Of a DNA stretch of 38,979 nt, positions 6,209 through 11,378 are shown one piece after another (the first letter of the stretch is position 1; every line of letters begins with the position of its first letter). Both the position numbers and the translations under genes were made by a program. The notes beneath the pieces were generated by a model that saw nothing but the letters and a program-made list of their open reading frames with translations, ran no database searches and was not told the DNA's origin. The DNA is from Kayfunavirus LM33P1. Location of the stretch: the sequence record OZ035813.1. One strand, given 5' to 3'.

Positions 6209-6231
6209 ACTTAACTATCACTATAGGACTC
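6209..6231 (+). promoter_or_regulatory. phage RNAP promoter immediately upstream of the RNAP gene
   Basis: ACTTAACTATCACTATAGGACTC; predicted +1 at 6226. Confidence 0.7.
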
Positions 6232-6300: not shown

Positions 6301-8982
6301 ATGAGCGTCATCTCTATTGACAAGCACGACTTCTCTGATGTGTCGAACGCCATTGAGCCGTTTAACCTACTGGCTGACCACTACGGGCAAGACATTGCAG
6401 TCAAACAGCTTCAGCTTGAGCACGAGGCATACACTGAAGGCGAGCGACGTTTCATCAAGAACCTTGAGAGACAGACTGAGCGAGGGGAACTGGCAGACAA
6501 TCAGGTCGCCAAGCCTTTGATGCAGACTCTGGTCCCTAAGATTGCGCAAGCCGTCAAGGAGTGGCATGAAGGTCCAGACGGGAAGCTGTCAACCTCTCGT
6601 CCGAGCGTAGCGTTCACCATGTTGAGCACTGAAGAGAAGGCCGTAAAGGTCCGCTCTTTGCGCATCTCCTGCGAGTCTGCTGCGGTTATCATATTGAAGG
6701 TCATACTCTCCAAGCTGGTCAAGCCTGAAGGGATACCGATTACACCGATGGCCTCAGCGATAGGTCGCACACTTGAGGACGAAATCCGCTTCGGTCGCAT
6801 CCGTGACAAGGAGAAAGAGCACTTCAAGAAGGCGATAGCTGATAACCTGAATAAGCGGGCCGGGGCGTCCTACAAGAAAGCCTACATGCAAGCGGTCGAG
6901 GCATCCATGCTGGAGCAAGGCCAACTGGAAGATGCGTGGGGGACTTGGAGTCCGACCGAGGCTGTCCACGTTGGAATCAAGATGCTGGAGATTGTCATCC
7001 AGTCCACACAACTGGTCGAGCTTAAGCGTTACGGTGCTGGCAATGCAGCGGCTGACGTTGAGATGGTCCACCTGTCAGACTTCTGGGTCAAGAAGATGGC
7101 ACAACGAGGATTCAGCCTTGCGGGTATAGCTCCAGTCTACCAGCCTTGCGTCGTTCCACCTAAGCCGTGGACTGGTGTCGTAGGCGGTGGGTACTGGGCC
7201 AAAGGACGCAGACCATTACCACTGATTCGCTTAGGGTCTAAGTCTGCGGTAGCACGCTACGAAGACGTGTATATGCCTGAAGTCTATGACGCTGTGAACA
7301 TCATTCAGAATACACCTTGGAAAGTGAACAAGAAGGTTCTGGAAGTGGTGAACATGGTCGAGAAGCTGAACAACACGCCTATTGATGACATCCCTCAGAT
7401 GGAACCGCTGAAGCCTGAGGACTATGCGGGTGAGACTGAAGAAGAACTCAAGGCATGGAAGAAGGCTGCTGCTGGTATCTATCGCCGCGAGAAGGCCAGA
7501 CAGTCACGAAGATTGTCACTGAGCTTTATCGTCAACCAAGCGAACAAGTTCTCTCAGTTCAAGGCCATCTGGTTCCCGTATAACATGGACTGGCGCGGTC
7601 GCGTCTACGCTGTGCCGATGTTCAACCCTCAGGGTAACGACATGCAAAAGGGTCTTCTGACTCTGGCAGTCGGTAAGCCTATTGGTGCTGATGGTTTCAA
7701 ATGGCTGAAGGTCCACGGTGCAAACTGCGCGGGTGTCGATAAAGTCACCTTCGAGGAGCGTATCAAGTGGGTGGAAGATAACCACGACAACATCATGGCT
7801 GCTGCCAAGGCACCGATGGATAGCATTGAGTGGTGGGGCAAGTTAGACTCTCCGTTCTGCTTCCTAGCGTTCTGCTTCGAGTATGCTGGCGTAATGCACC
7901 ACGGCTTGTCTTACTCCTGCTCGCTGCCGATAGCGTTCGATGGGTCCTGCTCTGGGATTCAGCACTTCAGCGCTATGCTTCGCGACCACATCGGTGGACA
8001 TGCAGTAAACCTGACGCCATCCGGTAAGGTCCAAGACATCTACCGCATCGTGTCTGACCGCATTGAGGAGGAGCTTAAAGTCCTACTGGTTAACGGTACG
8101 GACAACGAGATGGTAACTCACGAGGACAAGAAAACTGGTGAGATTACCGAGCGTCTCAAGCTGGGGACACGAGAGCTTGCCCGTCAGTGGCTGACCTACG
8201 GTATGTCACGAAAGGTCACTAAGCGTTCGGTCATGACTCTGGCCTACGGGTCGAAAGAGTACGGCTTCGCAGACCAAGTTTACGAGGACATCGTGATGCC
8301 AGCGATTGACTCAGGGTCTGGCGCTATGTTCACTGAACCAAGCCAAGCATCTCGCTTCATGGCTAAGATGATTTGGGAAGCTGTGAGTGTGACCGTAGTT
8401 GCTGCGGTTGACGCGATGAAATGGCTTCAGGGTGCTGCCAAGCTGCTTGCTGCTGAAGTGAAGGACAAGAAGACTGGAGAAATCCTGAAGCCTTGTCTTC
8501 CGGTACACTGGGTCACACCTGATGGTTTCCCTGTCTGGCAGGAATACCGCAAGAAGGACACCACTCGTCTGAACCTGATGTTCTTAGGGTCATTCAACCT
8601 TCAGCCTACCGTCAACAAAGGCACGAAGAAAGAGCTGGACAAGCACAAGCAGGAGTCAGGCATTAGCCCGAACTTCGTCCACTCACAAGATGGTAGCCAC
8701 CTCCGCAAGACTGTAGTCCACACGCACCGCAAATATGGCGTGATGTCATTCGCAGTGATTCACGATAGCTTCGGGACCATCCCGGCTGACGCTGAGTATC
8801 TGTTCCGTGGAGTCCGTGAGACGATGGTCGAGACCTACCGCGACAACGATGTGCTGCTTGACTTCTACGAGCAGTTTGAATACCAGCTTCACGAGAGCCA
8901 GAGAGACAAGTTGCCTGAGCTTCCGAAGAAAGGTAAACTGAATATCGAAGACATCTTGTCTTCAGACTTTGCATTCGCTTAA
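6301..8982 (+). CDS. T7-like single-subunit DNA-directed RNA polymerase (gp1)
   Basis: 893 aa; characteristic T7 RNAP sequence throughout (for example PMFNPQGNDMQKGLLTLA, HDSFGT, AFCFEYAGV, C-terminal FAFA). Confidence 0.97.
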   Translation: MSVISIDKHDFSDVSNAIEPFNLLADHYGQDIAVKQLQLEHEAYTEGERRFIKNLERQTERGELADNQVAKPLMQTLVPKIAQAVKEWHEGPDGKLSTSRPSVAFTMLSTEEKAVKVRSLRISCESAAVIILKVILSKLVKPEGIPITPMASAIGRTLEDEIRFGRIRDKEKEHFKKAIADNLNKRAGASYKKAYMQAVEASMLEQGQLEDAWGTWSPTEAVHVGIKMLEIVIQSTQLVELKRYGAGNAAADVEMVHLSDFWVKKMAQRGFSLAGIAPVYQPCVVPPKPWTGVVGGGYWAKGRRPLPLIRLGSKSAVARYEDVYMPEVYDAVNIIQNTPWKVNKKVLEVVNMVEKLNNTPIDDIPQMEPLKPEDYAGETEEELKAWKKAAAGIYRREKARQSRRLSLSFIVNQANKFSQFKAIWFPYNMDWRGRVYAVPMFNPQGNDMQKGLLTLAVGKPIGADGFKWLKVHGANCAGVDKVTFEERIKWVEDNHDNIMAAAKAPMDSIEWWGKLDSPFCFLAFCFEYAGVMHHGLSYSCSLPIAFDGSCSGIQHFSAMLRDHIGGHAVNLTPSGKVQDIYRIVSDRIEEELKVLLVNGTDNEMVTHEDKKTGEITERLKLGTRELARQWLTYGMSRKVTKRSVMTLAYGSKEYGFADQVYEDIVMPAIDSGSGAMFTEPSQASRFMAKMIWEAVSVTVVAAVDAMKWLQGAAKLLAAEVKDKKTGEILKPCLPVHWVTPDGFPVWQEYRKKDTTRLNLMFLGSFNLQPTVNKGTKKELDKHKQESGISPNFVHSQDGSHLRKTVVHTHRKYGVMSFAVIHDSFGTIPADAEYLFRGVRETMVETYRDNDVLLDFYEQFEYQLHESQRDKLPELPKKGKLNIEDILSSDFAFA

Positions 8983-8997
8983 CAACAGGAGAAGTAT

Positions 8998-9228
8998 ATG
9001 TCAATGAAACTTGTAGCACACAACAGGGTATTCAACGATGGGTCGGGACGTTGCCATGTAGAGCTGACTTATAAGGATTTAATCATTCTCCGAGACAGAT
9101 TACAGTCGGGTGTGACTGGGTGGATTCAACCTAACGAGTACAACCTTATAGCTTCGATTGATGAAGTTCTTAACGCGTGGATGGAAGACGAGCGCATTCA
9201 GTATCCGTCATTCCCTCTAATTAGATAA
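8998..9228 (+). CDS. hypothetical protein
   Basis: 76-aa ORF with AGGAGA SD directly after the RNAP gene. Confidence 0.5.
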   Translation: MSMKLVAHNRVFNDGSGRCHVELTYKDLIILRDRLQSGVTGWIQPNEYNLIASIDEVLNAWMEDERIQYPSFPLIR

Positions 9229-9238
9229 GGAGAGAGTT

Positions 9239-9454
9239 ATGAAATTTGCACACAAGCATACTGGCGTTAATGGTGGGACTCAAATCGTGACCGTAACAGA
9301 ACACAACGGCAAGGGTCTGGTGAAGACCACGGTCATCCCTACCGAGATGTCCAAGCAGCTTAACATCCCGTTCAAGACTCTTGTATATCTGGTCGAGTCC
9401 AGCCACGAGAAGTACCTGAAGGACGCAGTGTCCAAGCTGGAGCAGGCCAAATGA
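9239..9454 (+). CDS. hypothetical protein
   Basis: 71-aa ORF with AAGGAGAG SD. Confidence 0.5.
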   Translation: MKFAHKHTGVNGGTQIVTVTEHNGKGLVKTTVIPTEMSKQLNIPFKTLVYLVESSHEKYLKDAVSKLEQAK

Positions 9455-9529
9455 CAGACATACAGTTACTGGCCTTGTGGCTGGGAGCACTCGCAGTATT
9501 CACTTTAATCCAACGCAGAAGAGGTTAAC

Positions 9530-9552
9530 CCTAAACTATCACTATAGGATTA
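9530..9552 (+). promoter_or_regulatory. phage RNAP promoter (phi1.1-like)
   Basis: CCTAAACTATCACTATAGGATTA; +1 at 9547. Confidence 0.75.
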
Positions 9553-9595
9553 GACTCAAGGTCATGACTCAAAGTCGTGGCCTTCATGATTAACC
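9548..9595 (+). promoter_or_regulatory. RNase III-like processing hairpin (R1.1 position)
   Basis: same conserved core GACTCAAGGTCAT..GTGGCCTTCATG just downstream of promoter +1. Confidence 0.4.
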
Positions 9596-9625
9596 CTAAA
9601 TAAACACTACTGGAGATTTAACCGT

Positions 9626-9805
9626 ATGTATCAGAACACTATCAACTTCGAGCGCATCCGTGAACGTCAGCAGACTGAAGGTTACATCCCTAAGGGCCGC
9701 AAGCTGAACAAGACTAAACGTGGAGGAGGTATCAAAGGTGCTTTCCGTAACGCTGAAGGTAAAGACTCTATGGTTAACCAAGAGAAATACTTCGTAGGAG
9801 CATAA
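9626..9805 (+). CDS. gp1.1-like small basic protein
   Basis: 59-aa ORF downstream of a phage promoter; KGRKLNKTKR motif matches recalled T7 gp1.1. Confidence 0.6.
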   Translation: MYQNTINFERIRERQQTEGYIPKGRKLNKTKRGGGIKGAFRNAEGKDSMVNQEKYFVGA

Positions 9806-10073: not shown

Positions 10074-11161
10074 TGACAACTATCAAAACTAACCCTCACC
10101 GCGCTGTAGATTACTCTGAGTCTGGAATTAAGAAGGCACTGGAAGCAGCCGGGTCTCTGGAAGCTGAAGTGAAGTACGATGGTGTGCGCCTGAACCTCCT
10201 GGTCCTGCGTGAAGGTGAGACCTACTGGCTTAGCCGCGAGTCGAAACCTCTACCAGCCTTGGAGTGGATGAACTCTGAGTTAGGTAATGCGTGGACCCAA
10301 GCTGACTGGCGATGGTTCCTGCGTCAATCCGGCTACGAAGGTGTGGGCATGATGATTGATGGCGAGGTCATGGTCAAAGGTGTAGACTTCAACACCTCCT
10401 CAGGTCTCATCCGAACGAAGTGGCTCAAGCCTAACAACGAGGAGTTCGCTGAATACTATTCGCCGGCGACTGGTGGAAAGAAGCTCCCGTTCTGGGGATC
10501 CCGGTCACGACTTCAGGTTGTGGTCTACGGTGTCATCGACATGACAACCATTGCTGACCCGAAAGCCGAAGGTCCTATCCATAGCGTCACACGCCTGAAG
10601 GCCGAAGCTATCGTCCCTCTCCTCCAGAAATACTTCCCGGAAATCGACTGGGTTCTGTCTGAGTCACACACGGTCTATGACCTTGAGTCTCTCAACTCCC
10701 TGTACGAAGAGAAGCGTCTGGAAGGACACGAGGGTCTGGTAGTCAAGGACCCACTTGGTAAATACAAGCGCGGCAAGAAGTCAGGCATGTGGAAAATGAA
10801 GCCGGAGGACACCATTGATGGGACCGTGTGTGGACTCGTGTGGGGGACTCCTGGTAAGGCTAACGAAGGTAAGATCATCGGCTTTGAGGTTCTACTGGAG
10901 GATGGCATGGTGGTCAACGCCTGCGGTCTGTCTGAAGAACAGAAGGACGGGTTTACGGCTAAGGTCAAGGAGGACACGCTTGCTGCGGTTGGCATCTTTG
11001 CGCCGTACGGCATTGGTGGTAACGAACCTTGCTTCGATAACCCATACGAAGGCTGGCAGTGTGAAGTCCTCTTCATGGAGAGGTTCCCTGATGGCTCCCT
11101 TCGTCACCCCAGCTTCAAGTGCTGGCGTGGAACCGAAGACAACCCAACGGTGAAGTCATGA
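10073..11161 (+). CDS. ATP-dependent DNA ligase (gp1.3)
   Basis: KYDGVR adenylation motif, EGHEGLVVKDP, SLRHPSF; start taken at ATG 10073 overlapping the gp1.2 stop (TAATG) to match the T7 N-terminus MxxIKTNP. Confidence 0.9.
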   Translation: MTTIKTNPHRAVDYSESGIKKALEAAGSLEAEVKYDGVRLNLLVLREGETYWLSRESKPLPALEWMNSELGNAWTQADWRWFLRQSGYEGVGMMIDGEVMVKGVDFNTSSGLIRTKWLKPNNEEFAEYYSPATGGKKLPFWGSRSRLQVVVYGVIDMTTIADPKAEGPIHSVTRLKAEAIVPLLQKYFPEIDWVLSESHTVYDLESLNSLYEEKRLEGHEGLVVKDPLGKYKRGKKSGMWKMKPEDTIDGTVCGLVWGTPGKANEGKIIGFEVLLEDGMVVNACGLSEEQKDGFTAKVKEDTLAAVGIFAPYGIGGNEPCFDNPYEGWQCEVLFMERFPDGSLRHPSFKCWRGTEDNPTVKS

Positions 11162-11337
11162 GTACACAACTTTATATCAACATAGCAAGTAGTCAACTCT
11201 ACGCTGTGGTAAATGGCGAGCTGTGGTATCGTAAACTCAAGAAGTGGGCCAAGTCCTCCTACGATGAAGAGACAATATCAACCATGAGTCATCGCTACCG
11301 TAAGGCTGCTAAGGTGAACAACTTTAAGATGCGTTAA
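11158..11337 (+). CDS. hypothetical small protein (gene 1.4 position)
   Basis: 59-aa ORF whose ATG overlaps the ligase stop (ATGA). Confidence 0.4.
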   Translation: MSTQLYINIASSQLYAVVNGELWYRKLKKWAKSSYDEETISTMSHRYRKAAKVNNFKMR

Positions 11338-11341
11338 CGTC

Positions 11342-11378
11342 AACCCAGTGGTCTTATGACTGCTGGGTTTCTTTGCGT
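11342..11378 (+). terminator. candidate early terminator (TE-like) after the ligase operon
   Basis: 12-bp stem AACCCAGTGGTC/GACTGCTGGGTT (two G-U pairs), loop TTAT, then TTTCTTT. Confidence 0.45.

Follow-up and report, generated by a model that had tools for sequence, protein, structure and literature searches.

Small genes between the RNA polymerase gene and the phi1.1A-type promoter of Kayfunavirus LM33P1 include a conserved and rarely annotated 25-codon frame

We analysed the region directly downstream of gene 1, the gene of the T7-type single-subunit RNA polymerase (RNAP), in Kayfunavirus LM33P1 (OZ035813.1). The window is the whole genome of 38,979 bp, circularly permuted relative to the LM33_P1 records LT594300 and NC_031937 (window coordinate = record coordinate + 3376), and all positions below are window positions unless another locus is named; a blastn search with positions 8900-9650 gave a 100% match to LM33_P1 (the same two records; Kayfunavirus, K1F group). 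Three small open reading frames (ORFs) lie between gene 1 and a phi1.1A-type phage promoter. ORF-A and ORF-B are early phage genes of an ordinary, uncharacterised kind and are annotated already (as hypothetical proteins); the one modestly new point is ORF-C, a conserved and selected gene of 25 amino acids (aa) that is almost never annotated. On balance, we favour the reading that the three genes form an early accessory cassette co-transcribed with gene 1, that ORF-B and ORF-C are a coupled pair of a soluble protein and a membrane peptide, and that the most likely role of the cassette is host interaction (takeover, anti-defence or exclusion). The three ORFs and their Shine-Dalgarno (SD) sequences are as follows.

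8987..8991, + strand: SD sequence AGGAG of ORF-A, 6 nucleotides (nt) 5' of the ATG
8998..9228, + strand: ORF-A, 76 aa, acidic, phrog_28104, an optional gene-sized insert between gene 1 and ORF-B
9227..9232, + strand: SD sequence AAGGAG of ORF-B, 6 nt 5' of the ATG, overlapping the ORF-A stop codon
9239..9454, + strand: ORF-B, 71 aa, basic, phrog_8082
9451..9528, + strand: ORF-C, 25-aa hydrophobic peptide MTDIQLLALWLGALAVFTLIQRRRG, its ATG overlapping the ORF-B stop codon as ATGA, unannotated in the LM33_P1 records

An earlier note on this DNA had placed two SD-preceded ORFs (76 and 71 aa) between gene 1 and a phi1.1-like promoter, and both were found at these coordinates; the 25-aa hydrophobic peptide overlapping the second stop codon, which it had called possible, is very likely a real gene. 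It had also described the ORFs as inserted. This is true of ORF-A alone, whereas no related locus read lacks ORF-B or ORF-C. Across the relatives, the gene order is gene 1, ORF-A (optional), ORF-B, ORF-C, gp1.05 (PF25755; optional), phi1.1A, a hairpin, and genes 1.1, 1.2 and 1.3.

In all 33 loci in which ORF-B could be located, ORF-C is open for 25 codons (26 in one of them) and overlaps the ORF-B stop codon, with ATGA at the overlap in 31 loci and GTGA in the other two; in the window, a GGAG is found 7 nt upstream of its start. The frame ends with QRRRG (QQRRG in one locus), followed by TAA, TAG or TGA; the terminal RRG is invariant, and R22 is replaced by Q in one of 28 distinct sequences. 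Overlap and length are kept across ORF-B alleles that are only 42–56% identical, and they are kept whether the promoter, gp1.05 or gp1.1 comes next. By this conserved start/stop overlap, ORF-B and ORF-C qualify as a candidate coupled pair, with reinitiation as the presumed mode of coupling.

Alternatively, ORF-C could be untranslated, its conserved 78 nt being a nucleic-acid element (the ribosome-binding region of a downstream gene, the upstream context of a promoter or replication origin, or an RNA structure) with an incidental open frame, an explanation that we consider unlikely. It would account for the last ORF-C codons (AGA AGA GGT) serving as the SD sequence of gp1.05 or gp1.1 in relatives, for a synonymous rate (pS) that is lower in the 3' half than in the 5' half (0.25 vs 0.37), and for the absence of the peptide from nearly all annotations and, one variant excepted, from a collection of 15 billion proteins. 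It does not account for the selection seen in the ORF-C frame. The ratio of nonsynonymous to synonymous changes (pN/pS) among the 28 distinct sequences is 0.27 in frame and 1.0–1.1 in the other frames, and 30 of the 53 distinct single-nucleotide variants are synonymous against an expectation of 27% (p = 7e-6), with no significant excess in the other frames. Length, start overlap and stop position are held in 33/33 loci despite swaps between ATG and GTG and among TAA, TAG and TGA; the most distant copy (locus L014) keeps the hydrophobic pattern and QRRRG using different codons; and ORF-C is still conserved where about 480 nt separate it from the promoter. Because the selection is frame-specific, a nucleic-acid element is not the whole story for ORF-C, and we retain the reading that it encodes a peptide.

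A tblastn search with the ORF-C peptide found at least 175 phage records, almost all of them labelled Kayfunavirus or assigned to enterobacterial hosts. The window sequence and the commonest variant are both among those missing from the protein collection, and the only annotated copies seen are gp10 of GA2A (YP_009324944, 25 aa; 76% identity) and gp14 of IMM-002 (YP_009812842; 72% identity), two orthologues with the same ATGA overlap with an ORF-B homologue. The latter is labelled 'DUF2842'; none of four ORF-C variants (one identical to the IMM-002 peptide) matches the Pfam DUF2842 model at E <= 10, so the label is unsupported. ORF-C is an example of how phage annotation loses conserved peptides of fewer than 30 aa.

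The ORF-C peptide has a 15-residue stretch with a mean Kyte-Doolittle hydropathy of up to 2.5, an acidic N-terminus and an RRR tail; hydropathy and charges suggest a single membrane helix with its C-terminus inside the cell. Bacterial small membrane proteins and type I toxin peptides include Ibs, TisB and MgtS. Peptides of this type are comparable to ORF-C in size, in their single hydrophobic helix and in their charged end, but no sequence relationship with them was found, and ORF-C differs in being phage-encoded, coupled to an upstream protein gene and without an antisense RNA context. It is possible, though we put this forward tentatively, that ORF-C is translated as a 25-aa inner-membrane micropeptide, that stop-start coupling on the RNAP mRNA keeps it in fixed proportion with ORF-B, and that the two form a module with a specific early role at the host membrane. 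If so, the module might, for example, block a membrane-associated defence, exclude superinfecting phages or alter membrane physiology.

A programmed frameshift fusing ORF-B to ORF-C was considered and rejected, as inspection found no slippery heptamer at CCAAATGA. Several records of the LM33P1 species (e.g. MZ234009) annotate a 38-aa GTG-started ORF at 9477-9593, which crosses the promoter and the R1.1 hairpin; it is likely spurious, because its pN/pS is about 1 and it is interrupted by stops in 8 of 28 relatives.

ORF-B is a genus-wide gene. It was found directly 3' of gene 1 (or of ORF-A where present) in every Kayfunavirus locus read, including those of K1F, CR44b, vB_EcoP_F, AN17P1 and of Enterobacter and Salmonella phages. 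It matches 219 phage records with identity down to 42%, and its match to the PHROG 8082 profile (E = 4.7e-42; residues 1-66 on positions 1-66) counts as full-length; a second, profile-based search returned only close relatives among the top 120 matches listed. The uncorrected pN/pS is 0.36. Orthologues directly after gene 1 are known under other names, namely 'gp1.1' in K1F (AAZ72969 / YP_424917; 98.6% identity) and in EcoDS1 (ACF15787; 93%) and '1.05' in CR44b (YP_009007142; 74%), and these three show no structural difference from the window copy. The names are misleading, since ORF-B matches neither PF08200 (the family of T7 gp1.1) nor PF25755 (that of T3 gp1.05), to which its own family is unrelated; in the window, PF08200 has no match in ORF-A or ORF-B, and neither has any Pfam match at E <= 1. 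An 89-aa antisense ORF (9221-9490, - strand) overlaps ORF-B; it is taken as a chance ORF, because the annotated genes of this region are on the + strand in the window and in all relatives read.

The ORF-B product has an isoelectric point (pI) of 9.5, no cysteine and no signal peptide, and starts with MKFAHKHTGV. Its predicted fold (pLDDT 91) has three long beta strands, a short helix and a long C-terminal helix, which describes ORF-B as a putative small basic alpha/beta protein. A fold search gave matches to LptE and to chaperone-like proteins, none of which assigns a function, and against the viral structure library BFVD it gave uncharacterised proteins only. One BFVD look-alike is from ECBP5, in which none of the candidate genes of 58–59 aa lies directly 3' of the RNAP gene. 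The resemblance to LptE/RlpB, to type III secretion class I chaperones and to SecB-type chaperones is one of fold only, with low identity and partial coverage. That ORF-B mimics the lipopolysaccharide (LPS)-assembly lipoprotein LptE and thereby disturbs LPS transport to the outer membrane is extremely improbable: beyond the fold match itself, identity to LptE is 3–12% with less than half of LptE covered, many unrelated small alpha/beta folds reach almost the same score, Pfam gives no LptE match, and ORF-B, unlike LptE, has no export signal (neither signal peptide nor lipobox), so it should remain in the cytoplasm, away from the periplasm and outer membrane, where LptE acts. A role of ORF-B as partner or chaperone of the membrane peptide is plausible because of the chaperone-like fold neighbours together with the invariant coupling to a hydrophobic peptide.

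The phi1.1 promoter region is the primary replication origin region in T7 and T3. Regulation of the phage's own transcription or replication by ORF-A and/or ORF-B, for example by the basic ORF-B binding nucleic acid or RNAP near the phi1.1 promoters, would be another explanation, which we rate as improbable. The fixed position beside gene 1 and phi1.1A/R1.1/phi1.1B, the basic character of ORF-B with its invariant lysines and its presence in every locus read are compatible with such a regulator, but between phages with identical promoters and with RNAP C-termini that are 99–100% identical, the ORF-B alleles are more than 50% different, a poor fit with a partner so conserved; moreover, T7 and T3 have no such gene, and no DNA-binding family was matched.

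ORF-A, in contrast to ORF-B, is optional. Compared with K1F and CR44b, it is a clean indel of the size of a gene, bounded by the similar stop-plus-SD motifs TAACAACAGGAGAAG and TAAGGAGAGAG. Its product has a pI of 5.5 and matches the PHROG 28104 profile at full length (E = 2.1e-56; residues 1-76 on positions 1-76), and this family is very narrow: ORF-A matches 39 phage records at >=84% identity, a word-indexed search gave 9 clusters, and an exhaustive HMMER search of 1.84 billion representatives found only 5 matching clusters, all phage-borne, four of them distant (33–51% identity). The EcoDS1 'unknown product' ACF15786 (PHROG 28104) is an orthologue in the same slot with 93% identity. We propose that ORF-A encodes a small acidic soluble protein, optional and variable between phages; its description as an optional moron-like gene shares the preference that we give to the cassette reading as a whole.

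It is very unlikely that ORF-A is a decaying or spurious ORF without function. Such an ORF might be expected from the restriction to 39 phage records and the absence from K1F itself, from a structure model of low confidence (pLDDT 67) and from a GC content (0.44) below that of the genome (0.50). However, the four distant relatives, from independent metagenomic phages, are full-length and each lies directly 3' of a T7-type RNAP gene, with an ORF-B homologue next in all three contigs that reach far enough; the motifs DGxG, VE.T and VTGW are kept among the homologues; the uncorrected pN/pS of nine copies is 0.48 in frame and 1.05 and 1.24 in the other two frames; and a strong SD sequence precedes ORF-A. 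Tandem paralogy of ORF-A and ORF-B, considered for their shared MK.(V)AH…GG/DG start, was rejected (hhalign probability 0.8%), and no paralogues of either were found elsewhere in the genome.

The slot after gene 1 shows variable presence and rapid divergence beside conserved core genes. Between the same pairs of genomes, the last 150 residues of RNAP are 90–100% identical, as compared to 33–51% for ORF-A, 42–75% for ORF-B and 54–96% for ORF-C. We regard the slot as a mosaic accessory hot spot because the RNAP C-termini are conserved while ORF-A and ORF-B diverge strongly; by these identities, ORF-C is its most conserved element. Another optional gene, gp1.05 (156–164 aa), has its place exactly between the stop of ORF-C and the phi1.1A promoter, in EcoDS1, in L014 and in many IMG/VR loci, and is absent from the window (no PF25755 gene):

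L001:2129-2599 (EcoDS1): optional gp1.05 gene
L014:5560-6054: optional gp1.05 gene, 164-aa copy for which Pfam PF25755 is recorded

The start of gp1.05 uses an AGAGG inside the last ORF-C codons, and in EcoDS1, at the one junction inspected, its stop lies inside the promoter. The slot after gene 1 is a small recombination hot spot: besides an optional gene, it contains a fast-diverging one and a conserved micropeptide overlooked by gene callers.

The earlier note had contrasted this arrangement with T7, where promoters follow gene 1 directly. Indeed, T7 phi1.1A lies 26 nt past gene 1 with no gene between. It had further stated that T3/Yersinia-type phages carry small genes here. T3 gene 1.05 (NP_523302; PF25755 Phage_T3_1_05) is, like the window ORFs, a small uncharacterised gene between gene 1 and phi1.1/R1.1, but it belongs to an unrelated family and a different slot and has its own promoter: it lies downstream of the phage promoter phi1.05, itself placed 12 nt after gene 1, whereas the window has no promoter core between 8982 and 9530. 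PF25755 has no match in ORF-A, ORF-B or ORF-C, and the PF25755 gene of Kayfunavirus relatives forms an optional module of its own, located after ORF-C. The parallel with T3 is positional only.

The genes and signals that flank the three ORFs are listed below.

6209..6231, + strand: consensus K1F-type phage promoter ACTTAACTATCACTATAGGACTC, +1 at 6226, directly 5' of gene 1 (pattern match to the other phage promoters of the window)
6301..8982, + strand: gene 1, T7-type single-subunit RNA polymerase, 893 aa, intact
9530..9552, + strand: phi1.1A-type (K1F-type) phage promoter CCTAAACTATCACTATAGGATTA, +1 at 9547 (consensus match; aligned with T3 phi1.1 and T7 phi1.1A)
9549..9595, + strand: homologue of the T7/T3 RNase III site R1.1, hairpin ACTCAAGGTCAT...GTGGCCTTCATGATTAAC (alignment to T3, where R1.1 is annotated, and to T7)
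9595..9617, + strand: degenerate promoter-like sequence (…AAACACTACTGGAGATT; AAACACTACTGGAG) at the position of T7 phi1.1B, with several mismatches to the consensus core
9626..9805, + strand: true gene 1.1 homologue, 59 aa, PF08200 (E = 6.1e-11; 43.1 bits vs a gathering cut-off of 21), the downstream border of the region

No terminator-like site was found on the + strand between gene 1 and the phi1.1A-type promoter, and a hairpin resembling the early terminator TE is found at about 11342-11376, after the ligase gene and one further small ORF; EcoDS1 has TE annotated at the same place. With no terminator after gene 1 and TE only past the ligase gene, the three ORFs belong to the host-transcribed early unit. 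The earlier note saw them as extending the host-transcribed early operon, which stands as far as they lie within this unit; transcription is probably not by the host enzyme only, since a phage promoter precedes gene 1. Its equivalent is annotated as 'phi' in EcoDS1 (2244-2266), and gene 1 and the three ORFs are presumably also readable by phage RNAP from it. The promoter would imply autogenous transcription of gene 1, at a position where T7 and T3 show none.

The phi1.1A-type promoter is a perfect K1F-type promoter and starts 2 nt after the ORF-C stop. The hairpin that follows (folding energy of -17.7 kcal/mol, z = -3.9) shares ACTCAAGGTCAT…GTGGCCTT(C/T)ATGATTAAC with T3 and T7, an analogy by which RNase III would cut at 9549-9595 and so set the 3' end of the gene 1/ORF-A/ORF-B/ORF-C mRNA. 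An Rfam search of 8900-9700 gave no match. The ASO2B record annotates the equivalent of 9549-9595 as a rho-independent terminator, probably a mis-annotation. The degenerate sequence at 9595-9617 is conserved in K1F, CR44b and AN17P1; its promoter function is doubtful, and it could represent a relic or else a weak promoter.

Put together, our favoured reading would work as follows. Host RNAP would transcribe from the left-end early promoters through gene 1, ORF-A, ORF-B and ORF-C to TE past the ligase gene, and phage RNAP starting at the promoter just 5' of gene 1 would cover this stretch too. The gene 1 mRNA, once cut by RNase III at the R1.1-type hairpin, would carry the three small genes at its 3' end. 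ORF-A and ORF-B would be translated from their own SD sequences, and ORF-C by termination-reinitiation at the ATGA overlap, giving a single-helix inner-membrane peptide with a cytoplasmic QRRRG tail. The three products would be non-essential host-interaction factors made alongside RNAP, ORF-B and ORF-C probably being paired, the soluble protein acting as the membrane peptide's partner or chaperone. Of this reading, the analysis itself shows that the genes are real, and it shows their synteny, the geometry of the coupling, the mosaic variability and the homology of promoter and R1.1; the details of transcription and RNA processing, the insertion into the membrane, the ORF-B/ORF-C interaction and any host target are inferred.

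Several results weigh against this reading. Pfam, NCBIfam and PADLOC (a library of defence proteins, not of anti-defence proteins) have no match for ORF-A, ORF-B or ORF-C, and sequence profile searches of the PDB with the family alignments gave nothing significant. The three sequences are not in the supplements of the accessory-gene screens of Silas et al., as far as these were available. Since ORF-B and ORF-C occur together in every locus read, a core function would explain them no less well than an accessory one. In relatives, an SD sequence lies within the 3' part of ORF-C, so part of the conservation of ORF-C is at the nucleotide level. The fold matches of ORF-A and ORF-B are generic small alpha/beta or helical-hairpin motifs, and the low confidence of the ORF-A model counts here as well. 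A search upstream of gene 1 for a homologue of the T7/T3 R1 site found none, which leaves the 5' end of the proposed processed mRNA undefined. As for previous descriptions, PHROGs holds function-less families only, and no paper treating the three ORFs was found in the part of the literature that was accessible.

Phage-therapy papers mention LM33_P1 and other members of Kayfunavirus, which makes their uncharacterised early genes relevant to safety and host range, and ORF-A, ORF-B and ORF-C are compact, easily testable candidates for host-takeover or anti-defence functions. A new principle would be involved only if ORF-B and ORF-C, as a pair, turned out to act on a specific membrane target.

Within gene 1, the 19 nt at 8267-8285 read TCGCAGACCAAGTTTACGA in the window, identical to K1F, and GAGGACATCGTGATGCCAG in both public LM33_P1 records. 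The latter version nearly duplicates the sequence that follows and creates a TGA stop, owing to which gene 1 is annotated as two coding sequences in these records; the window version gives the intact RNAP of 893 aa.

Downstream of gene 1.1, the window contains gene 1.2 (PF10922) and then the ligase gene. The small ORF at 11159-11337 (about 59 aa, counted from the ATG at 11159) overlaps the stop codon of the ligase gene and ends just before the TE-like hairpin. The region after gene 1 is also carried, at about 90–96% identity, by OR786095 (Staphylococcus phage MBBL139), PV615262 (Acinetobacter phage vB_Aba_01KA) and PQ520054 (Enterococcus phage IME_EF3); the non-enterobacterial host labels of these three records are probably wrong, or the samples were contaminated.

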